A DNA stretch of 48,769 nucleotides from a virus: UHGV virus genome UHGV-0110022. One strand, 5' to 3'. This document shows, piece by piece, positions 4,327-48,769 of this stretch (positions are counted from its first letter, which is position 1; every line of letters starts with the position of its first letter). Both the position numbers and the translations under genes were made by a program. Below the pieces are notes generated by a model. It was not told the origin of the DNA. It saw only the letters and a program-made list of their open reading frames with translations, and made no database searches.

Positions 4327-4915
4327 ATCGATTAACAGAAACCACAGAACGATGAGGCTAACCGTGGGTAAGCATCACTGGAAAGTAGAAAAACAGCCTG
4401 AGTGGTACGTGAAAGCTGTCAGAAAAACTATCGCAGCGTTGCCGGGTGGTTACGCTGAAGCAGCTGACTGGCTGGATGTAACAGAAAACGCATTATTTAA
4501 CCGCCTTCGTGCCGATGGCGATCAGATTTTCCCGCTGGGATGGGCAATGATTTTGCAACGTGCTGGTGGAACTCACTTCATTGCTGACGCTGTGGCGCAG
4601 TCTGCAAATGGCGTCTTTGTGTCTCTTCCTGACGTCGAGGATGTGGACAACGCCGATATTAACCAGCGCCTGCTGGAAGTCATTGAACAGATTGGCAGTT
4701 ATTCCAGACAGATTCGTTCGGCAATCGAAGATGGTGTGGTGGAACCGCATGAGAAGACAGCAATTAACGACGAGCTGTATCTCTCAATTTCGAAGCTGCA
4801 GGAGCATGCAGCACTGGTCTACAAAATCTTTTGCATTTCAGAAAGTAATGACGCCCGCGAGTGTGCAGCTCCGGGCGCCGTGGCGTGTCGTGACTGTGGA
4901 GAAACTAACGCATGA
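4307..4915 (+). CDS. early regulatory protein, CII/YdaT-like (putative)
   Basis: Position immediately after cro; start chosen at internal Met MKNLMDKS (4307), start uncertain. Confidence 0.4.
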
Positions 4916-36428: not shown

Positions 36429-37008
36429 TCAACAGAAAATCCCGTAAAAACAGCATTCTTTAGCATGTTTATCTAACGGTTTGTAACTTCTGTTCTAACG
36501 TCTGTTAGCACTGGTAAACGCCTTTGCGTTGTATCGGCTCAAGTATTGTACAACGTACTGGCGGGTAGTTACCAGGCTCAAGCCCGAACAGCATTAGAAA
36601 TTATGCCATCCCTTGAAGCTAAAAGAGTTGCCGGACTCTCTAAACACATCACTTGAACCCTTAGCGATACGTTCCGCGCTTCGTGCGGCGCTCAATGATG
36701 CTACACGTCGAGATGACGTTGCAGAAAATAAACAGGCGTAATGTTGGGAAGACTAACCGGATCGGGAAAGAATCCGGCTCTGCCACGGTTTCGATCACCG
36801 GAGTATAACGATCACCTGATAAGAGAACGTGCTAAGGCTTTATCCTCCCTGCGAAGGGATTACACCCTGCGGAAGCGCTACGCGCCGCCTTTTCTTATGT
36901 GCCCAACACGGCACGTAATGGTCATCCATTATCTGCACCATTGTAACTTTCGTTGTACTGCCTCTCTGATGTACGTTGAGCGCTGGCAGATTCAGCGGAG
37001 GGGATATC

Positions 37009-37167
37009 ATGTCAAAAGCTAACCAAAAAGCAGCCACGAAGCGCAACAACCGTAAGATTCACGCCCGTAAATTCCTGGCAACACCAGAGGGGAAAGCCTG
37101 GCTTGCTAAGAAGCAGGAAGAGCGAGAGGAAATCAAGTTGGCGCGAGCTGCAAACTTGATGTTTTGA
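37009..37167 (+). CDS. small basic protein (52 aa)
   Basis: GGAGGGG RBS 5 nt before ATG. Confidence 0.4.
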   Translation: MSKANQKAATKRNNRKIHARKFLATPEGKAWLAKKQEEREEIKLARAANLMF

Positions 37168-37178
37168 GATGGGGCTAA

Positions 37179-37979
37179 TCAGCCCCTATTGCCCCTATGC
37201 TTTTTTTCGAATCTTGTCACAACTCTATCCAACCATTTGGGTTCTTCTCTAAGATCTGAGTAGTAACAATTTTCTGGAACCGCGTTCCAGAAAGCAGTTA
37301 TTGCGTTAGCAAAATCTACAAATTGATCTTCTGAGACATGTAAATCGTCATGGTTAGGGACAATCTGCGTGCCTCTAACATCGGTGGGGTTTGGGTAATA
37401 CTCAGGATGATCAACTGATAGTGTTTGATGTGCAGGGCCGTCTCCATGCTTGTATACGTTTACCACCAAGTTACAGGCTTTTATCCTTTCTCCGTATTCG
37501 GTTCCATTGATTGTGAGGCCAATCCATTCGAGCAAATCAATTAGCTGATGGAAAGTTAAATTCCAGATCATGGGGGTAATCAATTCTCTTTCACACCAAT
37601 TACTTAGCTCTTTGATAGTATGTTCTCTTAGTTTTTTATCAAACTGATGATACATACCTGCTGTCAACGCCAACAATACGGTATTTTGCATCTCCAGAAG
37701 CGACCATACATAATAAATTCCCTCATGATAGGCTTGCTCGTAGGCCGCCATTGGGTCATCGTTATCTTGATCAAAATACTCAGCAGTAGTCTCCAAAAAC
37801 TGTTGTTCTCTCTTCTCTGCTTCTTGTTCTAAATCACCAAACTGAGAGAGAAGCCGCCGCCTTGCCTCAGAAACGTAAAATTCATGGGGTTCAAGAAAGT
37901 ATGGAAGATCGGCTCTGGCTAACCAGAAGGTGACAAAATTTTCAGTAGACATACATTTCCTCAATGAAGCGATAGACAT
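37179..37979 (-). CDS. hypothetical protein (266 aa)
   Basis: Long ORF; no recognisable motif; start uncertain. Confidence 0.45.
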   Translation of the reverse strand: MSIASLRKCMSTENFVTFWLARADLPYFLEPHEFYVSEARRRLLSQFGDLEQEAEKREQQFLETTAEYFDQDNDDPMAAYEQAYHEGIYYVWSLLEMQNTVLLALTAGMYHQFDKKLREHTIKELSNWCERELITPMIWNLTFHQLIDLLEWIGLTINGTEYGERIKACNLVVNVYKHGDGPAHQTLSVDHPEYYPNPTDVRGTQIVPNHDDLHVSEDQFVDFANAITAFWNAVPENCYYSDLREEPKWLDRVVTRFEKKHRGNRG

Positions 37980-38115
37980 TTTGAGGTTATGTTATCTTCG
38001 GTGAGGGTTAAAATCCTCAACTGATTCAATGGAATTGTCATTTGGTTTGAAATGCGGTAAAAGAATAAAATTCGTAATGTACGCTTTGCAGAAACAATCT
38101 GAAAATGAGGTGGTT

Positions 38116-38343
38116 ATGAGTGAACGTTACGAATTTTTACCCAATTGCTTCCTGAAAGTCTCTATCTCATCGGGTTACTTTACTGCCATCCTTGATGGTT
38201 CGCTTCCTCCTGATACCCCTGGTTCTGTTCATGCTGATAATGCCACGCAAGTCATAATCGTACTCGATTCCTACTTCCAATTGACTGACTTACAGCATCA
38301 AGGAATTGCTAATTATCTTTGCTCTCAAGGGATGGAACTTTGA
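38116..38343 (+). CDS. hypothetical protein (75 aa)
   Basis: GAGG RBS before ATG 38116. Confidence 0.3.
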   Translation: MSERYEFLPNCFLKVSISSGYFTAILDGSLPPDTPGSVHADNATQVIIVLDSYFQLTDLQHQGIANYLCSQGMEL

Positions 38344-38798
38344 TAGATTGGTTGCTTAATGTTGATAATCTGACCATGCTTGCCGCATGGGCTGGGTTTG
38401 CACTATCCATTTTCCAGCTATTAAAATCCAGAACAGATCTACGCCTTTTCTTAGGTTGCGATCAGTATGAAGACAGAATTTATGTTTCCAACAAAAGCGC
38501 CCATGATGTGACGATAAGTTCGGCGGGCATAGTAACCGCCAGCGGACGCCTTAGCGATTGTTCTAACGAACATTGTGATGAATACATGATCAGCCCCATG
38601 TTGCCACGCCGATTAAAAGCCCGTGATGAAATGATCTTAGAAGTACCATTCATCAATAAGGCTCACCATAATAAGGTGCATCATCGCGGAGGGGTGTATG
38701 TTACTACATCTGATGGGAAGCTGTTCAGTGATGTTAGTTGGCTGCGTCGTCGCTGGTGGTGGATATTGTCTCTGATCCTACGTGATTCCAAGCAGTGA
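38319..38798 (+). CDS. hypothetical protein, possibly membrane (start uncertain)
   Basis: ORF with hydrophobic N-terminal segment; no clear RBS. Confidence 0.3.
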   Translation: MLSRDGTLIDWLLNVDNLTMLAAWAGFALSIFQLLKSRTDLRLFLGCDQYEDRIYVSNKSAHDVTISSAGIVTASGRLSDCSNEHCDEYMISPMLPRRLKARDEMILEVPFINKAHHNKVHHRGGVYVTTSDGKLFSDVSWLRRRWWWILSLILRDSKQ

Positions 38799-38856
38799 TT
38801 ACTTATACACCGCACCAGACCACGCTGGTTATCTGCTTGTCTTCCTTCTTCAATCG

Positions 38857-39054
38857 TTACTCCTCTTCAAAGGTCATTGTGTAGCGGCATTGCTGCGACG
38901 GCCTGAGCGTCACTGTCTCCGTAAAGTTGGCGTTGGAATAAACGCAAATCTTCGCGTTGTCTGTCTCCTGTTCGTCACTGAGAATCAGGGTTATCTGTCC
39001 GGCATTCGCCAGGACTGGCATTACTGTCAGCGTCAGCACAAGCAAGCGTTTCAT
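38857..39054 (-). CDS. small secreted protein (65 aa with signal peptide)
   Basis: AGGAG RBS 7 nt before ATG; signal peptide MKRLLVLTLTVMPVLANA; directly downstream of the recombinase. Confidence 0.45.
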   Translation of the reverse strand: MKRLLVLTLTVMPVLANAGQITLILSDEQETDNAKICVYSNANFTETVTLRPSQQCRYTMTFEEE

Positions 39055-39064
39055 GCGTATCTCC

Positions 39065-39697
39065 TTATAAGTCCATCTCATTGATCACACGGCTAACGGC
39101 TTGCTTGTCTAAATCCAGATAGCGCCTGGTGTCAGTGATGTTGCTGTGATTAAGCACGGTCATAGCTAAAGCGATGTTGTTTGCTGAACGCTTGTAGATG
39201 GCATTCCCGCCAGCTTTGCGGAAGCTGTGAGCTGATACAGTGCCATGAATACCGATAGCTTTAGCGGCCTCTGCGATCTGCTTGCTCACTTCTTCGCGTC
39301 GTACAGGCGCTTGCTTGTTCATTGATCGGTTACGCTGGCTTCTGAACACATGCACATCATGCGGATACTCAGCACGGCGACGAGCAATCATCTGCACCAC
39401 TGGAGCAGGGAGAGTGAGGGCTTTACGCTTCCCTGTCTTCTGTTCTTCTATGTCAATCTCACCGTTGATCACTTCGTCGAAGCGTAACGCTACGGCATCC
39501 CCCACACGCAGTACAGCGGCTTGCATCATTAACGTAACGTCAGCTATCAGGCTCTTGTTATGAGCGTTTAGCCACTCCCTGATCGCTTTGGCTTGCTGTT
39601 CGTCTAACACTACTGCTCTGTTCAATTTACCCTCCCATAAAGACACACATCTAAACTCAACGAAACAAATAATATGATCAATTTCAGTAAGTTGCAA
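39065..39697 (-). CDS. small tyrosine recombinase (catalytic domain only, FimB/FimE-size)
   Basis: Catalytic residues in LRVGDAVALRFDEV (Arg), HSFRKAGG (His-x-x-Arg), TDTRRYL (Tyr); possible TTG start at 39625 after GGGAGGG RBS, giving 186 aa. Confidence 0.55.
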   Translation of the reverse strand: MQLTEIDHIICFVEFRCVSLWEGKLNRAVVLDEQQAKAIREWLNAHNKSLIADVTLMMQAAVLRVGDAVALRFDEVINGEIDIEEQKTGKRKALTLPAPVVQMIARRRAEYPHDVHVFRSQRNRSMNKQAPVRREEVSKQIAEAAKAIGIHGTVSAHSFRKAGGNAIYKRSANNIALAMTVLNHSNITDTRRYLDLDKQAVSRVINEMDL

Positions 39698-40384
39698 TAT
39701 AAATGATCAAAAATCGAACTGTCTTGTGTGTGGTAAATGGCGCGATTGCGTCCAGTGCTTAACGACCTCCAGGGCCGCCTCCAGATCGAAAATTTCTTCT
39801 CCTCTAAATATCTTGAACAAAATCATGATGTTGGCATTTATAAACATGTGTTTGAACATTGCCAAATCCTCAACTCTGCACGAAGAACAGCGGCAACAGC
39901 GGAACATCACACTACCAATGCTTGTGTGTGGTTATTGTCTATCTCATTGATTTAAATCTGATAAATGTAAGGTTGTTAGGCGAGGGCGGGGCTAACCTGC
40001 CTGTATGCACAGATTATGCGGAGTTTATGCACTTGAAACTGAGTGTGTAATGAAATGATTAGAATGCTAATCAATTGGTGGATTTTGGCATGAAAAAGAA
40101 ACATCGTTTCATTTTAGAAAACTCGTTCAGCACATTGCACCTGTCATGAAACTCCTCATTGTGGACAATGATCGCTGTGAGCCGCATGGCGCAAGGCTTT
40201 ACGCAAAGTGAGTGATGGTTACTATCTTGCTGACTATGGCAACTTTACCCATGTAACAACGGCAATCTTTACCTGTCATTTAAGATAGGCTTAGCTATGA
40301 TTATCGTGTTGTTTTGATAGGAATAACCTCTCGTTACTCTTAGTGTTGTTGCATGGATGAATCAGAGTTAGTTGGGGGCGTTAT

Positions 40385-40464
40385 ACATCAAAATGATGTA
40401 TAGATGCATGGGATACGCATCAAATTGATGTATGGATCGGCAAACTACACATCAAATTGATGTT
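40385..40464. repeat. three phased palindromic repeats (putative regulator binding sites)
   Basis: CATCAAA(A/T)TGATG at 40386, 40418, 40450 with exact 32-bp spacing. Confidence 0.5.
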
Positions 40465-41014
40465 CTATACAAAGAGATTCTAAAAGCGATCTCTAAAAGA
40501 GAGCTTTTAGAAGATCTTGTTAAAGATTCGCTTTGCTGGCGCGTATCGCCTGGCAAGTGACCTGATTCGCCTTTGGGGGCTACTCGGTCAGCCGCTCACG
40601 ACGCAGCGTAGCGCATCTGTCTGTGATTGTGCCAGGGCTTCGCCCTCGTGAAACGAGGCACAGAAGCTATGCGCCGTGTGCGCAATGTCTTTCAGGATAA
40701 CTTCTGCCTGTCTTCCATGCTCCGCATTCATCCATGCAAAGTTAGCCCACGGCTAAGGATTCACTGGTCGCTGATGGCTCCAGTTCATCCAGCCTCAATC
40801 CAATACCATCACCTACTATCCTGATAACTAACGTTATCCCTCAGTAGTTGTGCTATTGGTTTCGGGAGTAAGTGCCAGAGGGCGGCGGTAACGCAAACGG
40901 AACGCCCCAGACGCGCTGAGAGCGAATTTGAGAGGATAGGGAGGGGATTGCAACTCTCAGGCTTTCAAACCTGTTAGAAAGCGATAGACCGCGTTTTATG
41001 ATGACATGAATGAG

Positions 41015-41094
41015 TTGATCACAACGTGGAAATGCGCTATAATTTGAAAGGGATTGAAATAAGTGTTGACATTTAAATCATTTCATGTTAAAGT
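41015..41094 (+). promoter_or_regulatory. tandem sigma70-like promoters
   Basis: TTGATC-17 nt-TATAAT (41015-41043) and TTGACA-17 nt-TAAAGT (41066-41094). Confidence 0.45.
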
Positions 41095-41189
41095 AAATGA
41101 TGTAGGGTGATGAAAGCATTCATCCCGTCCTCATCTCAGGCATCCAGCCTAACGCAAACAATCCAACTTACACCGCACTATCAGGCAAC

Positions 41190-41438
41190 GTGATTAACGT
41201 TCTCCCTGGATGGTGTTTCTGTGTTTCTAACGCAAGGAGAACCAAAATTAAGTATTTTAATCCAGAACTTGTCTTCGAGGCTTTAAAGGCCGGAAGCCAG
41301 ACGCGAAATGCAATAAACAGCCAGCGAGCAGCCGCACAACGGCAAGGATATTTCGAACACGCTGAAAGATTGCGTAAAGGAATCGAACTTTACGATCAAT
41401 GGAAAGCTGAACAGGCTGAAACCACCACCAACGAATAA
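41190..41438 (+). CDS. hypothetical protein (start uncertain)
   Basis: ORF with internal AAGGAG at 41233 but no in-frame ATG after it. Confidence 0.3.
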   Translation: MINVLPGWCFCVSNARRTKIKYFNPELVFEALKAGSQTRNAINSQRAAAQRQGYFEHAERLRKGIELYDQWKAEQAETTTNE

Positions 41439-41456
41439 ACCAGAAGGAGAAACCAA

Positions 41457-41633
41457 ATGAGCGAAATCCAGAAGAAGAAACCAGCCGGAACATTCGTAAA
41501 ACTGCCGGATGAAGTGTTTAGTACTTTGTTCAAAGAGGCGCGAGCGAGAGGCGTAACAGTGCAGGAGATGTTAATTGACGCTGCAACCACACTTTCCACA
41601 TCAATTAAGAACGGAGAACGTTCTACCAAATAA
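41457..41633 (+). CDS. small DNA-binding-like protein (58 aa, possible ribbon-helix-helix), not in the ORF track
   Basis: AGAAGGAG RBS 7 nt before ATG; translation MSEIQKKKPAGTFVKLPDEVFSTLFKEARARGVTVQEMLIDAATTL... Confidence 0.4.
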   Translation: MSEIQKKKPAGTFVKLPDEVFSTLFKEARARGVTVQEMLIDAATTLSTSIKNGERSTK

Positions 41634-41647
41634 GGATACACCCTAAC

Positions 41648-42388
41648 ATGACTGACATTATAAACAGTAAGGCTTTTAGTTTCACCAACACCGAAGACGC
41701 ATTTAACGAATGCACCAGGATCACCAATCTTAAAACAGGCGTAACAGAGTCCCTGTCTCCTGCTGATAAGCAGTTTTACGTCAGAATGCGCCATCGTTAT
41801 TATCGCTTTGCGATAGAGTTGGGCGGTACTTATTACGATGACATTGATCAACTTGGTGCAAGTATTGGTGTCAGCTCGGCTACGGCAACACGTATTGTTG
41901 CAAAGTTGAAGAAAATCGGACTGATCGCCAGTAATAAGCCAAAGCGCTCTAACCAATGGACTATAACGCCACTCACGCCGCAAAACTTCACCTTTGAACG
42001 TGATCGTAATGCGATGGAACGTGATTCCGCGCCGGAATGGGTAGATTGTCTGAAACATCCCGTGTTTGGCAAAGCTAAAGAAGACGTAGCGCCAGAGGAA
42101 GAAAAACAGCAGTCAGTGCCAGAAGAGGCCAAAGCAGATCCGAAGCCGGAGAAGCCAAAGAAAATGCCTACGAAGAAACCCGCCTCCATTCCAGCTAAAG
42201 ATATTAAGATAGAGCCAGTTAATTTAAACTTTCTTGAGGGTTATCGGGATGAATGGGAGAATCCTGAAAAGAATCTACCAGTTTCACAACATCCGAAAAT
42301 CAGATGGCTACTTATTAACGGATACCTGGACACAGAGAAGAATCCAAAACTTAAACCAATCTACGAGGAAATAGAACATTTATGCTGA
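41648..42388 (+). CDS. HTH-containing protein (246 aa), possible replication/regulatory protein
   Basis: Winged-helix-like segment IGVSSATATRIVAKLKKIGLI; Lys/Pro/Glu-rich linker. Confidence 0.45.
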   Translation: MTDIINSKAFSFTNTEDAFNECTRITNLKTGVTESLSPADKQFYVRMRHRYYRFAIELGGTYYDDIDQLGASIGVSSATATRIVAKLKKIGLIASNKPKRSNQWTITPLTPQNFTFERDRNAMERDSAPEWVDCLKHPVFGKAKEDVAPEEEKQQSVPEEAKADPKPEKPKKMPTKKPASIPAKDIKIEPVNLNFLEGYRDEWENPEKNLPVSQHPKIRWLLINGYLDTEKNPKLKPIYEEIEHLC

Positions 42389-42843
42389 AAACGGTTATAC
42401 CCAAACAATACAACGAACGTGATCTTAACATCATCCATCTTGCCAGTTTATTAAATCCAGAAGTTGAAAGAGGTGTTGCATTCGAACAAGCGCAAGAACT
42501 TGTAGATGTTTACGCTGAGCGAGGTGAATCAAGTTACGCTAATGCTCTTGTTACGCTATTCAATGCAGCGATGAAGCCACCGAAAGAGATAGAATGTAAA
42601 ATGACATCCCCACATCTTCACGATAAGAATCTGTCTCCTTCGGAACGTCTGGTATTAATGCACCTCGAATCACTGCCATCATTAACAAATGTGAAACAGG
42701 AGTCAATAGCGATAGTGTTGGGGATAAGTGTGGCAACTGTATCCAGTGCGATTCGCAAGCTCCGCCGCAATGATTATCTAACTACTACGTTAATCAAACC
42801 TGGTCGCGGTAAAGGATGCGACATTACACTTACGACTAAATAA
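42382..42843 (+). CDS. winged-helix transcriptional regulator-like protein (153 aa)
   Basis: HTH-like segment IAIVLGISVATVSSAIRKLRRNDYL. Confidence 0.4.
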   Translation: MLKTVIPKQYNERDLNIIHLASLLNPEVERGVAFEQAQELVDVYAERGESSYANALVTLFNAAMKPPKEIECKMTSPHLHDKNLSPSERLVLMHLESLPSLTNVKQESIAIVLGISVATVSSAIRKLRRNDYLTTTLIKPGRGKGCDITLTTK

Positions 42844-42947
42844 CAACAATCGGGAAACTTTTATGATTACTGCTTTATGGTGGTTCACCATATTCTATGG
42901 CGTTTACGTTATAACCAGACAAGGAGTTTCCCCTCTACGAGGAATGA

Positions 42948-43331
42948 ATGGGACGAAAAGAACGAAGTAACCTTGTTAGAATCGAAAAAGCCACACGCAT
43001 CAGCAAACGTAAATACACCTCTTCTCTACAAGACCTCGCACGAGAGTCTATTCCTGGTGAGATGGTGACAACTATTAAAGAATATCCCGCAGTAGTACCA
43101 AATGGATTAGAGTTTGAACTATTGCAGGATGTTCTATCGTCAACGGATAACGTTTATTACAAACCACGACGCAGACGCGAATATATTATAGATAGTAGCC
43201 ATCTCAAGAAATGGCAAATAGCAGGATTTGAACATTACGCCGATTATATTGGGTATTGTCAAACCTGGGGGCTATCCCAGCACACACAAGAGTTTGATAT
43301 TCTCTTTGACGACAAGGAAAACAATGAATAA
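42948..43331 (+). CDS. hypothetical protein (start uncertain)
   Basis: ORF only. Confidence 0.25.
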   Translation: MGRKERSNLVRIEKATRISKRKYTSSLQDLARESIPGEMVTTIKEYPAVVPNGLEFELLQDVLSSTDNVYYKPRRRREYIIDSSHLKKWQIAGFEHYADYIGYCQTWGLSQHTQEFDILFDDKENNE

Positions 43332-43662
43332 TAAAACTATGGACACAGTGAACACCCTAATTAACTCTTTCCACGACAACTGGCATTTACCAACCTTACA
43401 GCTTGTTAATGCAGCGTGGCGTGAGAGAACGCCCTCCGCGCTTCTGGAAGCGGTGCAATACACTGAACAGGCAATCACTGCCCTTGAACATCTGCAAACG
43501 TCTGTAGCTCGTTTGGTGCAGCGTGACGGCAGTTCGATCACACCAGAAGAAGCGTGGCGTGTAGCTAATGACCTTGAGGAGCTTGCTTGCTCTCTGCAAT
43601 ACATCACCGTTGAACTCGGAGAGCTTTCCATCCAGATCGCGGAAGAATGCGCCATAACATAA
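43324..43662 (+). CDS. hypothetical protein (112 aa)
   Basis: AAGGAAA RBS before ATG 43324. Confidence 0.35.
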   Translation: MNNKTMDTVNTLINSFHDNWHLPTLQLVNAAWRERTPSALLEAVQYTEQAITALEHLQTSVARLVQRDGSSITPEEAWRVANDLEELACSLQYITVELGELSIQIAEECAIT

Positions 43663-43677
43663 AAGTTACTAAATGTC

Positions 43678-43706
43678 TTGACATTATGTGCTATATGTGT
43701 CATAAT
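43678..43706 (+). promoter_or_regulatory. near-consensus sigma70 promoter
   Basis: TTGACA(43678-43683)-17 nt-CATAAT(43701-43706). Confidence 0.55.
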
Positions 43707-44236
43707 GAGTTATAGGGTAAGTATTCGAATCACTTCACCCTCGTATGTCAATACGCACTCCTTGAGAATGCCGTTCCCATAGCGGCATTCTCTCCCTCTG
43801 AATGCTATTTCTGAAAGTGTTGGTTCTTTGTCTTGTTTGTTCCGAAGGAATGCGCGGGATGTAATATCTCGTTGTGTTGGTATTGCATCGCAATCACCGC
43901 GCATCTCCGACTTTTTCAGAAAGGGCATTCGCTCTTTGCTCATTCATTCCGTTAGGATGAATGTAGTCAGACTGAATAAACGCCGTCAGCGGTAGTTACG
44001 TTCAGGCTGGCAATCTCTTATTACTATTCCAGTGGTGATATTGAGATTCCATTCCCACTTCTCGCCATGACAGAAGGGCTTCTGTTTTGAAGTGGGAGCA
44101 ATGACGGGCGATCCTACTTCTGTTATTCGTAACAGTTGCGCCCTTCATTTTTTCAAGAAGCCATTCTTTAACATCATAATCCTCCGAAACGAAAATGATT
44201 TTAACAGAATGCTTTCTAACAAGGGCATATTCTCCA

Positions 44237-44258
44237 GGGGCTTAATCGCCCCTTTTTA
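44237..44258 (+). terminator. rho-independent terminator at the end of a structured leader
   Basis: GGGGC-ttaatc-GCCCC followed by TTTTT. Confidence 0.55.
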
Positions 44259-44328
44259 ACAATCTGCATGTAACACTTCCGTTATTAATGGAAGGATAAA
44301 CGCAGTTATAACGCGAAGGAACAACACA

Positions 44329-44544
44329 ATGTTCTTAATAAACAATCGCGACCGAATCCTAAAATACAAATCCGAAGTGATTCAAGTTAATCCTGAGTTA
44401 ATAGCTAAAGTGGCTGAAATGGCAGGATGTACCGTTGAAGAAATAGAAAAAGCTGTAGACCAGTATTTCCCTTCTGAGGACACACCTCAACTTAGTATGC
44501 AGGAACGGATCGCAATCAAATCCAAGGAAATCAAACAACAATGA
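44329..44544 (+). CDS. hypothetical protein (71 aa)
   Basis: AAGGAA RBS; first gene of the capsid-like cluster. Confidence 0.4.
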   Translation: MFLINNRDRILKYKSEVIQVNPELIAKVAEMAGCTVEEIEKAVDQYFPSEDTPQLSMQERIAIKSKEIKQQ

Positions 44545-44900
44545 TTGTAGACCTAACCGAACTTTTCCCAATTCGTAAGAGTTTCACTGACGTATTGAGC
44601 TACGCCACTGATTCTTTTGCAGTCGTAGAAGGCCGTGTTTTCGACCTGCCAGCAGATATTGAATGCGGCGATGTTATCGGCGCTGATGGCGCTCTATACA
44701 CCTCCGGCGATGATGCCTTTGTGGTGGTAAGTGATTTCGTGAGTGCTGGCGACGGTAAAACCGTGAATGTCCTACGTGCGCCTAATGTTGGTAGCTTCGT
44801 AGCACTGAAAGCCGACAACCTGCACGCAGCTAATCACGCCGCAGCTATCACCACGCTCGAATCCAAAGGGTTCGTATGCCGTCCATTCTTCACCTCTTAA
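44541..44900 (+). CDS. head decoration protein-like (D-like, putative)
   Basis: 119-aa Gly/Ala/Val-rich protein immediately upstream of an E-like capsid gene; ATGA overlap. Confidence 0.4.
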   Translation: MIVDLTELFPIRKSFTDVLSYATDSFAVVEGRVFDLPADIECGDVIGADGALYTSGDDAFVVVSDFVSAGDGKTVNVLRAPNVGSFVALKADNLHAANHAAAITTLESKGFVCRPFFTS

Positions 44901-44916
44901 TCAAGGAAGATAAATA

Positions 44917-45948
44917 ATGAGTAAAATCGCAATTGGGCGTGAGATGGTCGATTTAGCGCCAATCTTCCAGGCTCTGCCGGAACGTAACTATCTTATGAAT
45001 GCCCTCGACCTATTCGACGGGGTAGGTGTTCAGAATCCGAAAGTGGTGGTGACACAGCTTCTGGATGATAACTACAGCCTGTTTAACACCCCGCAGAGCC
45101 GTTATTCATCAAACCACGACACTACCGCGCGTCAGAATGGCAAAGAATACCTTATCGAGATTCCTTGGTTTGCAAGGGAAGATGAGTTTAAACCTGTAGA
45201 CGTACAAGGCCGCAGAGTGCAGGGAACGGACTACGAGCAAACCGTTACCGACCTGTACACCGAATACACTGGCAAACATAAGATTGCTTATCTGCGTACC
45301 CGTGAGTCTTACCTGGCCCGTGCTCTGTTCAAAGGTGAAGTTTATACGCCTGCAACTGATGACCTACTGATCTCTTATGCTGAACTGTTCGGTGTGGTGC
45401 CAATGACAGCCAGCGTGAGCACAGCGACAGCGGCACAGGATTTTGATGCGATCTTAGACAAAGTTCAGGCTGCCGCAGGTGGATTGGCTGGACAGATTGA
45501 ACGAGTGATCGTATTCGCTAAACCTGCTGCATTTAGCCAGATTCGCTTCTCTGACAGTATGTCTAAGGCGTTCCAGTATGTAGCGCCATATGACGACCGT
45601 AACCTATTCTACCAGCGTCACGAGCTTCTCCCTGGTGTTAGTACGTTTAGCCTACCTGGTGCGCCTATCGACATTGTTAAAGTGACAGATCCGCTGATCC
45701 TTGCACAGATGCCAGATGATGCTGACATGGTGGCGGTTCCGGTGTTCAGTAAAGGCACAAATGCTTATCAGAACATCTACGGCGCTGCCTCTGGTAACTT
45801 TGCGCTGATCGATGCTGCACCTGCTGAATACTACTCTTGGGGCTACCTGAGCGAGCGCGGCGATGCTTACCACGTTATGCACGAAAACAGCGCATTACCA
45901 GTGAACCATGCGTTAGGTATGCAGGTGAAGATCACCATCACTGCTTAA
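44917..45948 (+). CDS. major capsid protein, E-like family (putative)
   Basis: 343 aa, lambda gpE-like size and composition; follows decoration-like gene. Confidence 0.5.
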   Translation: MSKIAIGREMVDLAPIFQALPERNYLMNALDLFDGVGVQNPKVVVTQLLDDNYSLFNTPQSRYSSNHDTTARQNGKEYLIEIPWFAREDEFKPVDVQGRRVQGTDYEQTVTDLYTEYTGKHKIAYLRTRESYLARALFKGEVYTPATDDLLISYAELFGVVPMTASVSTATAAQDFDAILDKVQAAAGGLAGQIERVIVFAKPAAFSQIRFSDSMSKAFQYVAPYDDRNLFYQRHELLPGVSTFSLPGAPIDIVKVTDPLILAQMPDDADMVAVPVFSKGTNAYQNIYGAASGNFALIDAAPAEYYSWGYLSERGDAYHVMHENSALPVNHALGMQVKITITA

Positions 45949-46067
45949 TGAGCAAGCGGGAGCCTGACCCGCTGGAAATAATCAGGCTATTGAATATGGC
46001 GTGTGAACGTTGGGAACATCTCCCCAGTGTTCCCGCCCTTTTTTATTTCCAGAATGAGGAAAGATAA

Positions 46068-46265
46068 ATGCAAGTGATTGTAAAAAGCGCGGGGCTTCAC
46101 CTCGCCGTAAATGCTGAAACAGCAGAAGAGTTATTAAATCTGGCGGGAGTGTGTCGTGTGCTTGAAATAGATCACGGTCATCTACGTCAGTTATTACATC
46201 GTGGGCGTAGTGTATCAGATGCACTTAATTATCTGGTGAGTAAAAAAGGCGGTGGCGATGCTTGA
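46068..46265 (+). CDS. hypothetical protein (65 aa)
   Basis: GAGGAAA RBS. Confidence 0.35.
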   Translation: MQVIVKSAGLHLAVNAETAEELLNLAGVCRVLEIDHGHLRQLLHRGRSVSDALNYLVSKKGGGDA

Positions 46266-48102
46266 GATTAATACAAGTAAGATCGTCAACACCGTAACTT
46301 TCACCGTTGACAAAGGGAGTATTGCAGAGGCTAAGGCCGCAGCGGATAACCTTCAAAAGCACTTCCAGAAAATAGCCGATCCCAAGATTCGCTTCCAGGA
46401 TCTGAAGCAGCGCAGACAGAAAGCCCGTCAACAAGCCGATGATGCACGTTTTAATGATAAGCCTCGTGATACGAAGGAAATGAAAGCCCAACGTGCGGCG
46501 GAGAAGCAGAAAGCCAGGGATGAAAAGGCCAATCTGAAAGCGAAGCAGCAGCTACAGAAGCGCCAAGAGACAGCCGAGCTTAAACTTCGCCATGCAGGGC
46601 TACAAGTGTCAGGAATTAAAGGTAAATACGGGCTTGATCCTAAATCTCAGTATGAAGCGTTACGTTATATTCATCAGCAAAGCGAAGAGTTTGCGAAGGG
46701 GAATATTAGCTCTCAACGTATGAATGCGCTTATACGCGAGCGTGTAACCCTGTTACGCAGAGAAGCCGCACAACAAGCGAAAGTGACACAGGCACAGCGT
46801 ACCCAGTATGCCGCAGCAGCCACTAAGCTAAAGGCTCAGAAGGGCGGGAATGCTCCTATCGTCGGTGGTGGGGTATTAGGAAGCCTTGCGTTAACGGCTG
46901 GCTCCCTCGGAGTGGGGCAGCGAATTGTTGACAAAGGGAATGAAAATCTTGACTTGGTTAGAAAATCGGAACTTGTTAAGACTAATCCTAACGTAGTTAA
47001 AACGATGGTGGCATGGGGGCAGCAACACGGAGTTGATAGCGCCAATGTCGATAAAGTGACGGACAATTTCAAAGATGTACGTGAACGTATCGCTATGACC
47101 CTGAACGATAGCCAGTTTAAAAATGGCGAATGGAAAGGCGGCGATGGTGGTATCACTTCTATTATGAATAAGTTTGGATGGGGCAAAGAACAGATTAAAT
47201 CCTTCCAGGATCGTCCTGCTGATCTACTTCAAGCAGTTACCAATGAAGGGCAACGCCGTGGTATGTCACAGGCTCAGATTGGTACGCTTATAGAGAGTTT
47301 AGGTGATGACCTGATGCACTACACCGATATGTTCATGAACAACGGTGCAGAATATAACAAGACGCTGAAACAGCTTGTCGATAGTGGTCAAACTCTTAAC
47401 GAGGAGCAGATCAAGCAAACTCTTGCATATGGTGATCTGAGTGTAGCGATGGGTAATCTCATGAATGGCGTTGATAACAGCATGTTTACAGGCTTTATGA
47501 AAGGCTTTGCTGATGGTGGTGACGACCTGGTGAAGAACACCAAAGTGATAACAGAATCTGCTGGTATGCTCGGAGAGGGATTAGGCGACCTGGCTAAACA
47601 GGTGACGGGCTTTGTTGGAGAAATCTCCAGCGTAGTGTCTGATCTTAACAGTGCGCTTCGTCAGCGCTTCCCTGAATGGTTTAGCGATACTAAGAAACCT
47701 GCTGTTCAAAATCTTTATGATGGTGCTGTGGGTGGCTCTGCGAATGCTACGGCCGATTGGATTCAGGATAAAACGGGGTTTGATACCCGTTCAGTGGCTC
47801 CGGCTATCATGGATTGGTTGGGCGTTGGTAATCAGCAAGCAGGGACAGCGGCTAATCAATACAGCCTTTCAGGGGAAAATCTCCGTGCTTCGGCAATGTC
47901 GCTCAACAGCAGCAACGCGCCAGCGTACACGTTGAACCCGATATTCAACCTACAAGTGAATCCACAAGTGGGATTGACTCTGCAAAGTGATGTTTCTCGA
48001 TTGTCTGACTATATCGACTGGTCTGCAAAAGCGAGTGCGGATTCATTCACTCGTAGCCTTACGCTATCAGCCTTGAGCGGTCAGTCATCCACAGGGGGAT
48101 GA
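46258..48102 (+). CDS. large virion-associated protein, function unknown (tape-measure-like or scaffold-like composition)
   Basis: N-terminal Lys/Gln/Ala-rich coiled-coil region, Gly-rich central region; start ATG 46258 or GTG 46252. Confidence 0.4.
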   Translation: MLEINTSKIVNTVTFTVDKGSIAEAKAAADNLQKHFQKIADPKIRFQDLKQRRQKARQQADDARFNDKPRDTKEMKAQRAAEKQKARDEKANLKAKQQLQKRQETAELKLRHAGLQVSGIKGKYGLDPKSQYEALRYIHQQSEEFAKGNISSQRMNALIRERVTLLRREAAQQAKVTQAQRTQYAAAATKLKAQKGGNAPIVGGGVLGSLALTAGSLGVGQRIVDKGNENLDLVRKSELVKTNPNVVKTMVAWGQQHGVDSANVDKVTDNFKDVRERIAMTLNDSQFKNGEWKGGDGGITSIMNKFGWGKEQIKSFQDRPADLLQAVTNEGQRRGMSQAQIGTLIESLGDDLMHYTDMFMNNGAEYNKTLKQLVDSGQTLNEEQIKQTLAYGDLSVAMGNLMNGVDNSMFTGFMKGFADGGDDLVKNTKVITESAGMLGEGLGDLAKQVTGFVGEISSVVSDLNSALRQRFPEWFSDTKKPAVQNLYDGAVGGSANATADWIQDKTGFDTRSVAPAIMDWLGVGNQQAGTAANQYSLSGENLRASAMSLNSSNAPAYTLNPIFNLQVNPQVGLTLQSDVSRLSDYIDWSAKASADSFTRSLTLSALSGQSSTGG

Positions 48103-48253
48103 TTGTGATGTAAATCACATGGGAATACCACATATTGCGCTCGCTTTGTAAAGGATGTGTATATGTGGTGTTTTTCTTTGACGCCGCTTCGTTTGTCCCT
48201 TACCCTTAAAAGGGTAAGCAGTTCACTCTTTATCTCCAAGATGAGGTGTTTTT

Positions 48254-48382
48254 ATGGCTAAGAAAACAGTAGTTCGTTCTGCGATAACTGGTCAGTTTGT
48301 TAAGCCCATTGAAGCTAAACGACATCCTGATACTACGATAACTGAAACTATCAAAATCCCTACCAAGAAAGCTAAGAAATAA
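48254..48382 (+). CDS. small basic protein (42 aa), not in the ORF track
   Basis: GAGGTG RBS 5 nt before ATG; translation MAKKTVVRSAITGQFVKPIEAKRHPDTTITETIKIPTKKAKK. Confidence 0.3.
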   Translation: MAKKTVVRSAITGQFVKPIEAKRHPDTTITETIKIPTKKAKK

Positions 48383-48440
48383 AAATATCTCAAAGTGCCC
48401 ATAGCGGCGCTTATTCATTTGAATGTCTGGAGAGAATTAA

Positions 48441-48719
48441 ATGGCAAACAACTTGTTTGTAACCTATGACTTGATCAAAACCAAAGATTATGCTGCTGTG
48501 CATGATGCTATCAAGGCCTTGGGCAACTGGGCAAAAGTTACCGAGTCGAACTGGTACGTAAATTCGAATTATTCGGTTGAAGAGGCTGCCAGAAAAGTTC
48601 GGGCAGCGATGGATAGCGATGATAAGTTGATTGTTGTTGATGCTAAGAATAACTCTGCTTCCTGGTATAACCTTTTGCCAGCAGTTGAGAATCAAATTCA
48701 AAACGAATGGAATAAATGA
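48441..48719 (+). CDS. hypothetical protein (92 aa)
   Basis: ORF followed by hairpin GGGGGAT..ATCCCCCC. Confidence 0.4.
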   Translation: MANNLFVTYDLIKTKDYAAVHDAIKALGNWAKVTESNWYVNSNYSVEEAARKVRAAMDSDDKLIVVDAKNNSASWYNLLPAVENQIQNEWNK

Positions 48720-48769
48720 GTTATCGGGGGATGGATAATCCCCCCTTAATTACTGGACGTTGTAATTTA

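Follow-up and report, generated by a model that had tools for sequence, protein, structure and literature searches.

A conserved RNA structure ahead of the capsid genes of a satellite-like Enterobacterales island and its possible role as a terminated leader

In a stretch of viral DNA 48,769 nucleotides (nt) long (UHGV virus genome UHGV-0110022; the whole stretch is here called the window), the segment between positions 43713 and 44257 of the plus strand almost certainly encodes a real structured RNA. The RNA sits in a ~13-kb Enterobacterales island that integrates at tRNA genes, with a replication/regulatory module before it and a capsid module after it. The segment is best explained as part of a single transcription unit, in which the ~545-nt structured RNA would exist as a discrete transcript and at the same time serve the capsid operon as its 5′ leader. 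We see the arguments as evenly balanced on whether the RNA and its terminator gate the capsid genes, acting as a terminated leader, and we put forward more tentatively the idea that such a gate would be opened by factor-dependent antitermination.

The strongest evidence for the RNA comes from its homologues, which were drawn from 14 complete Escherichia coli genomes, 8 viral contigs, 12 loci in other Enterobacterales genomes, and 32 metagenome contigs. Two alignments, of 13 and of 31 distinct sequences (A3 and A4), were tested for covariation by imposing the fold of the window, with the same structure slid along the alignment as a control. In the smaller alignment, 83.3% of cells were paired, as opposed to 42 to 48% for the slid structures, and 41 pairs had changed on both sides (controls, 13 to 28), values that none of 500 shuffles reached. 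The larger alignment gave 86.4% paired cells against 41 to 47%, and 52 pairs changed on both sides against 21 to 37. RNAalifold alone returned 99 pairs, 24 of them with a compensatory change, and the alignments display invariant blocks that alternate with hairpins whose arms change together. A covariation check across homologous loci, proposed in a preliminary description of this region, thus lends strong support to the RNA. Its full length is found by nhmmer even at loci where the neighboring capsid protein is just 55 to 59% identical; at the distant locus L003, aligned RNA positions are 85% identical, most flanking genes 72 to 76%, and the gene for a 71–amino acid (aa) protein 88%. Folding energy points the same way, with -195.6 kcal/mol on the plus strand against -137 for shuffled sequences (z -9.45), compared with z -4.98 on the minus strand and about -2.7 for the tested part (40480–41060) of another island stretch poor in open reading frames (ORFs).

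The same data bear on whether the hairpins could instead be sites in DNA, as in a packaging site (cos or pac) or a replication origin, which we regard as very improbable. Such an element would suit an ORF-less segment that adjoins capsid genes, as cos does in lambda, and a core that contains GACGGGCGATCCT, loosely like lambda cosN. However, the fold is strand-asymmetric, which points to G-U pairs, and compensatory swaps of hairpin arms occur even in the core: at locus L016, both core arms are exchanged (GACGGGCG/CGCCCUUC to CACCCCCG/CGGGGGUU), which speaks for a constraint on the helix rather than for a DNA recognition site. In addition, palindromes that are the likely origin lie 3.3 kb upstream (40380–40470), and no similarity to any phage was found. 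A cos site was accordingly rejected, there being no lambda-type cosN in the island and the core helix being swapped in L016.

Nor does the segment appear to encode protein, in agreement with the earlier reading that it holds no convincing ORF. It is unannotated by NCBI in 12 E. coli genomes, and among 13 homologues, substitutions fall without periodicity on the three codon positions (520/489/521), with 171 of 245 indels not being multiples of three. A conserved coding frame across homologues, which the preliminary description had named as an outcome that would overturn its proposal, was looked for and none was found. The alternative of a decayed gene, or of a terminator controlled through translation of a short leader peptide, has only the slightest chance of being correct. 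A short ORF from an ATG at 44101 (MTGDPT...) does open in 30 of 31 aligned homologues (translation checked in 12 of 13), but it continues in three different frames and has different ends among close relatives, and its GGAG lies just 2 nt from the ATG and inside a conserved helix. Coding potential and a leader peptide were both rejected, in the absence of a conserved frame and of a codon-position bias. As observations apart from this, the RNA gene of E. coli CFSAN051542 (NZ_CP020835.1, 3778551–3780070) carries an inserted IS1, and two short Enterobacter intestinihominis contigs from one genome (L014 and L019) both begin inside the RNA, ~20 nt upstream of the core, which suggests two copies of the island whose common sequence broke the assembly.

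The promoter that had been read as TTGACA-17-CATAAT at 43678–43706 was recovered at that position, beginning 16 nt past the stop codon of an upstream gene for a 112-aa protein; no terminator separates the upstream genes from it. It is the only match in the 48.8 kb of the window with at most one mismatch to TTGACA-N17-TATAAT. Such a match is expected 0.26 times by chance, and because 25 of 100 shuffles contain at least one, the match alone is not significant. The promoter gains its credibility from conservation, since every homologue has retained the -35 element and its TG-extended -10 partner at an unchanged distance. Transcription is predicted to start at 43712–43714 (AGGGUAAG...), and the RNA structure begins no more than 1 to 2 nt from there. 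A conserved TAGGGT (TAnnnT-type) occupies 43713–43718, where the same bases build the 5′ stem, and is also present after an island promoter at 41066. No conserved operator was seen at the promoter of this RNA (class A below), and comparison of the promoter region with phages gave chance matches only (expectation value, E, up to 10), with no resemblance to a phage late promoter. The promoter at 41066 (TTGACA-17-TGTTAAAGT), followed by GTAGGG and a 5′ hairpin, has the same design as the promoter of the RNA.

At the other end, the hairpin-U terminator previously placed at 44237–44258 was located at 44236–44257. Its stem A-GGGGC, loop UUAAUC, and return arm GCCCC-U (44236–44253) lead into a U5 tract that ends at 44257. 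A simple terminator scan did not list this hairpin, we guess because the A-U pair that extends the stem consumes part of the U-run being counted. A hairpin with a U-rich tail is kept at this place in 31 homologues, with stems as different as GGGGC/GCCCC, GGCGAC/GUCGCC, and GGGCUAC/GUAGCCC. Conservation continues beyond it: a covarying hairpin in the leader of the capsid mRNA is followed by a 12-mer with the Shine-Dalgarno sequence, AACGCGAAGGAA in 27 of 31 sequences and its variant AAUACGAAGGAA in the other 4. That this hairpin covaries and that the ribosome-binding block is conserved, both past the terminator, implies selection on transcripts that read through. The ~70 nt that separate the terminator from the start codon of the 71-aa gene gave no promoter-like site.

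A similar layout recurs in more distant islands. Those with capsid proteins 42 to 52% identical have no detectable homologue of the RNA and retain the arrangement: a promoter (TTGCAT-17-TATAAT or TTGCAT-17-TGTACAAT; start at about AGGGGUAG or AGGUAGGG), an ORF-less RNA of 385 to 920 nt, a hairpin-plus-U terminator, and the capsid genes 20 to 70 nt further on. Next to the ~545-nt class A of the window (plus-strand fold z -9.45), we distinguish class B (L020; ~920 nt, z -9.2) and class C (L022 and L025; ~385 nt, z -3.6 and -3.5). In class C, the first start codon of the capsid module follows ~20 nt past the terminator, too close for another promoter to fit in. In class B, both sides have changed in 14 pairs against 0 to 5 in slid controls (six sequences), a figure that is indicative only because the structure was derived from the same alignment. 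It is present in 282 of 5,426 complete E. coli genomes (about 5%), where it is almost never annotated. Neither nhmmer nor a covariance model of the 3′ domain found homology among classes A, B, and C; as far as their sequences tell, they are analogous in position and not demonstrably homologous, and the layout appears to be older than the sequence that fills it. Class B stretches were noted at 4449–5368 of L020 and 9001–9970 of L061, in a sister island at tRNA-Thr.

These observations can be joined in the following mechanism. The near-consensus sigma-70 promoter would fire without an activator, and the transcript, as covariation shows, folds into ~20 helices starting at its first bases. Most transcripts, including those reading in from the upstream replication/regulatory operon, would halt at 44236–44257. 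The 71-aa, gpD-like, and capsid genes would then be made solely from terminator read-through, because there is no space for another promoter. RNA and terminator would in this way split the early genes of the island from its late genes, as PR′-6S-tR′ does in lambda. A trans-acting factor from a helper phage or the island itself might raise read-through, acting via invariant loops (at 43724–43733, 43774–43782, 43890–43898, and 44111–44119) or the promoter-proximal region; its candidate targets are the loops UUCGAAUCAC, UU(U)CCCAUAG, GCAAUCACC, and AUCCUACUU, and the candidate factors are a conserved basic 127-aa protein encoded upstream or a helper-phage product. The leader reading is favored because of the covarying hairpin past the terminator and the ~20 nt between terminator and start codon in the most distant islands, and it counts for gating that islands with RNAs of no recognizable homology repeat the same succession of elements, from promoter and ORF-less structured RNA to terminator and capsid module. 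If gating holds, then a satellite-like island would make its structural genes depend on a helper phage through control of termination in an RNA, a logic for which P4 immunity and lambdoid late control are the closest precedents known to us.

Several points weigh against this reading. The U-tracts of some homologues are interrupted, so that mere leakiness of the terminator is conceivable. Where the transcript starts and ends, and how efficiently it terminates, are predictions. There is no conserved alternative helix that would sequester the 5′ arm of the terminator, and no antiterminator emerged from Pfam searches with the 127- and 112-aa proteins (no match at an E-value cutoff of 0.01) or from comparison of the 112-aa model with Q. 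Moreover, a gate needs far less than ~20 conserved helices, suggesting an additional or a different function. In folds of transcripts that stop short of the 3′ arm, the terminator's 5′ arm takes another C/U-rich partner in each homologue, and these segments are not homologous. The conserved antiterminator helix of a terminator-antiterminator switch (riboswitch or attenuator) was rejected on these grounds, and self-contained refolding of that type is less likely than a trans-acting factor.

The excess of structure raises the alternative that the RNA is a free-standing, abundant noncoding RNA acting in trans, be it by scaffolding a ribonucleoprotein, by serving as decoy or sponge for a factor of the helper phage or host, or as a large "ornate" RNA of the sort known from other phages. 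The terminator would then merely mark its 3′ end, with capsid expression as leak-through. We consider this rather unlikely, yet a serious contender. The ~20 helices and several invariant unpaired blocks exceed what a terminator gate would need, a strong promoter with a discrete terminator is typical of stable RNAs, and there is precedent in the satellite PLE and its helper phage ICP1, whose most abundant transcripts are noncoding RNAs of unknown function (PMC7567579). On the other hand, no conserved complementarity was found elsewhere in the window or island, three unrelated RNA classes all keep to the slot directly before the capsid operon, and the covarying hairpin past the terminator ties the RNA to the downstream mRNA. 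The two readings are in any case compatible, and neither excludes the other. Matches of the RNA to the whole window in a short-word BLAST were at chance level only, and no convincing pseudoknots or extra covarying helices were found. Two candidate pairings were rejected: that of the loop GAAUCAC with GUGAUUC in the 71-aa gene is lost in four homologues (L007, L016, L017, and L023), and that of the 10-nt AAUGCUUUC with the leader of the replication operon occurs with one replication-module type only, L049 lacking a compensating change.

The preliminary description had offered either a stable noncoding RNA or a terminated leader requiring antitermination, in the manner of lambda Q or HK022 put. 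The anatomy stands and the evidence leans toward the leader, whereas membership in the lambda-Q or HK022 put systems is not supported, the gene in the Q position having no Q-like match and the RNA being ~8 times the size of a put element. In lambda, the late unit consists of the PR′ promoter, the 6S leader RNA, the tR′ terminator, and the Q antiterminator. The unit described here shares with it a strong, presumably constitutive promoter directly after early/replication genes, an untranslated leader with a terminator, and head genes beyond that would need read-through; TAGGGT, at about +1 to +6, is by position a putative counterpart of lambda's pause-inducing -10-like element. Of the parts of a lambda-type Q unit, the sigma-70 promoter and the intrinsic terminator upstream of head genes are present, and a Q-family gene was not found, the 112-aa gene upstream of the -35 element having neither a Pfam nor a Q-like match, although a helper might supply a Q. 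The promoter also differs from phage PR′ regions, and the 545-nt leader with ~20 conserved helices contrasts with the 194-nt leader of lambda, for which no conserved structure is known.

HK022 put offers a different model: two promoter-proximal stem-loops of about 70 nt act in cis on RNA polymerase, independently of any factor. Applied here, the leader itself would bind polymerase in cis and take it past the leader's own terminator and those further on, and control would lie at the promoter. In its favor, structured RNA does lie immediately past the promoter and before terminators, as in a lambdoid-style layout, the loops of the 5′ hairpins are invariant, and the search for an antiterminator protein found none. 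Nevertheless, we judge such factor-independent processive antitermination improbable, because the 545-nt RNA is ~8 times bigger than put elements, the terminator is actively conserved, a compensatory upkeep that would be odd if it were always overridden, and the promoter at which control would have to be exerted has no conserved operator.

The P4 immunity leader, in which transcription from the PLE promoter terminates prematurely and yields the CI RNA by way of seqA and seqC (PMC10111431), resembles the present unit, as interpreted here, in belonging to a satellite and in using a constitutive promoter and an early-terminating leader that gives a stable RNA, with the downstream operon silent until a helper intervenes. 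It differs in that no conserved internal complementarity of the seqA/B/C type was found here, that capsid genes would be gated here and replication genes are gated in P4, and that this RNA is ~8 times the size of CI. With hundreds of nucleotides, rich structure, and a mobile or viral element as carrier, the RNA is also reminiscent of GOLLD, ROOL, the ~800-nt RNA of ICP1, and the IIR transcript of PLE (PMC7567579), from which its occurrence in Enterobacterales and its fixed position and orientation directly before the capsid operon set it apart.

None of these resemblances amounts to family membership. Scans with Rfam 15 (the window at the gathering threshold, 43500–44500 at permissive settings, and six related loci) returned only tRNAs and chance hits and no family match. 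The C4 and isrK models had no match at the gathering threshold in the window or the six related loci, nor up to E = 10 in 43500–44500, and the Rfam models of GOLLD, ROOL, HEARO, OLE, raiA, group I and II introns, ribonuclease P, tmRNA, and 6S did not match either. ARAGORN found nothing, a similarity search of the RNA region against phages and plasmids gave no match, and the literature searched did not describe this RNA and held general precedents only. Placing a terminated leader before late genes is a known logic. By contrast, we found no description of what these sequences appear to present, namely, a ~20-helix RNA in that role whose place is taken in sister islands by structured RNAs unrelated to it. 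With some reserve, as we think it unlikely though well worth considering, the RNA could be the first representative of a new class of large structured RNAs (385 to 920 nt, at least three unrelated sequence classes) that is a hallmark of this satellite-like island family of Enterobacterales and does more than terminate. Such an RNA could sense helper infection and license capsid expression, or act physically together with capsid proteins of the island itself, as a scaffold or multimeric RNA assembly, and an RNA that is more than a gate would join the small set of large ornate bacterial RNAs with open roles. There are not many large structured RNAs with clear covariation, and a host amenable to genetics is the exception among them. 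Class A and the unrelated RNAs of the same slot are found in E. coli and close relatives, so that their function is directly testable.

Within the RNA body (Table 1), the three hairpins named at the outset were confirmed at, or 1 to 2 nt from, the positions first given, and all are part of the minimum-energy fold: GAGAATGCCG/CGGCATTCTC at 43764–43773/43783–43792, ATGCGCGG/CCGCGCAT at 43850–43857/43897–43904, and CCCACTTC/GAAGTGGG at 44054–44061/44089–44096. The loop of hairpin 1, UUCGAAUC(AC) at 43724–43733, is almost invariant and putatively T-loop-like, UUCGAAUC appearing identical to the tRNA T-loop consensus. The domain that follows holds a pair of sub-hairpins and, at 43890–43898, the invariant internal loop GCAAUCACC, and its closing helix, GAAUGC..CUGAAAG/CUUUUUCAG..GCAUUC, occurs in four different compensated versions among homologues, in which GAAUGC/GCAUUC changes to GAAUAU/AUAUUC and CUGAAA/UUCAG to UUGAAA/UUCAA or CGUAAA/UUUACG. 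The octamer behind it has as its two partners GGGAGC (44094–44099) and AAGGGC (44221–44226), and GCUCUUUG, or its version ending in A, may be boxA-like, in view of its resemblance to the boxA core. In the four-hairpin stretch, the bases of the hairpins are conserved and their tips are variable and swapped among homologues, with arms changing in step, as from CCCACUUC/GAAGUGGG to CCUCAUUU/AAAUGAGG.

Table 1. Positions in the window of the promoter, the RNA and its parts, the terminator, and the adjoining genes.
Feature	Position	Strand	Remarks
Upstream core genes	42948..43662	+	127-aa and 112-aa proteins
Sigma-70 promoter	43678..43706	+	-35 TTGACA 43678-43683; 17-nt spacer; TG-extended -10 TGTCATAAT 43698-43706 (TG 43698-43699, CATAAT 43701-43706)
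Structured RNA body	43713..44257	+	~545 nt, ~20 helices; fold z -9.45; covariation; no Rfam match; predicted 3′ end within U-tract
5′ hairpin 1	43714..43741	+	from about +1; stem covaries, AAGU/ACUU vs AAACGU/ACGUUU
Hairpin 3, GAGAAUGCCG / CGGCAUUCUC	43764..43792	+	92.5% paired; conserved loop UU(U)CCCAUAG
Domain closed by long-range helix GAAUGCUAUUUCUGAAAG / CUUUUUCAGAAAGGGCAUUC	43800..43930	+	8 pairs changed on both sides
Octamer GCUCUUUG (GCUCUUUA in many homologues)	43931..43938	+	two alternative conserved partners
Four hairpins in series	43941-43963, 43966-44011, 44012-44048, 44052-44098	+	77-94% paired; 2-5 both-side changes each
Most conserved core, GGAGCAAUGACGGGCGAUCCUACUU ... UGCGCCCUUCAUU	44095..44149	+	helix, internal loop AUCCUACUU, variable tip
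3′ domain	44156..44228	+	long hairpin 44156-44217 and conserved small hairpin AAUGCUUU/AAGGGCAU 44209-44228, right before terminator
Intrinsic terminator AGGGGC-UUAAUC-GCCCCU + U5 tract	44236..44257	+	-11.5 kcal/mol; three unrelated stems in homologues
Hairpin beyond terminator, capsid mRNA leader	44264..44305	+	covarying; at least 4 different sequences among homologues
12-mer with Shine-Dalgarno, and ATG (44329) of 71-aa gene	44310..44331	+	12-mer AACGCGAAGGAA; conserved in 27/31
Capsid module	44329..45948	+	71-aa 44329-44544; 119-aa gpD/SHP-like 44541-44900; lambda-E-like major capsid 44917-45948

The D-like and E-like genes that had been proposed downstream of the terminator are borne out. 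The capsid protein matches Pfam Phage_cap_E (PF03864), and the AlphaFold2 model of the 119-aa protein is matched by Foldseek to decoration proteins including lambda gpD and phage 21 SHP, which suggests a protein of that type. On the upstream side, the 112-aa protein is predicted to form a three-helix bundle (predicted local distance difference test score, 92.6), for which no match in the PDB was better than E 0.26 and none was to Q. The 127-aa protein (42948–43331, plus strand) has a basic N terminus rich in Lys and Arg (MGRKERSNLVRIEKATRISKRK) with a KPRxRK motif, and a sequence search of the PDB gave nothing convincing for it (best E 0.75). It is found at 21 to 68% identity in islands of all three RNA classes, always one or two genes upstream of the RNA.

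The part of the island inside the window spans 36700–48769 and runs on past the window end. In E. coli, the island occupies tRNA-Thr (adjoining proA) or tRNA-Leu, with a convergent integrase at its far end, and its upstream replication module holds an O-like replication initiator and a helix-turn-helix protein. Neither AlpA nor a primase was found among ten scanned island proteins (41648–48719) or in the NCBI annotation of related loci, and a portal, a protease, and a terminase were likewise missing, both from the proteins scanned and from complete related islands as annotated. The island looks satellite-like, yet it falls outside the canonical layout of Gram-negative phage-inducible chromosomal islands (PICIs), a unidirectional Integration-Bro-Replication-Late order with AlpA and primase (PMC10111431), from which it differs on each count, its integrase being convergent. 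It does share its lambda-E-like capsid gene with many Gram-negative PICI satellites, in which such genes are already known (PMC10111431). No description of this island family of Enterobacterales was found in the literature searched.

Further features of the window were noted outside the transcription unit. A second ORF-poor stretch at 39700–41190 holds three copies of the palindrome TACATCAAAnTGATGTA at 40380–40470; these iteron-like repeats may be the origin of replication, or operators. Adjoining the island, positions 1–34000 hold a prophage of myovirus type, in which ORFs have the sizes of terminase, portal, and sheath genes; its complementarity and similarity to the RNA are at chance level only. 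Beyond the capsid module, a 616-aa protein (46252–48102, plus strand) matches phrog_16051 ("tape measure") and shares ~40% identity with proteins from Phapecoctavirus and Justusliebigvirus, lytic E. coli myoviruses of ~150 kb. In island L025, the slot of this gene is occupied by the Kiwa defense genes KwaA and KwaB, and with the likeness of the 616-aa protein to phage proteins, the slot looks like a variable position for cargo or defense genes, or a clue to the helper phage.

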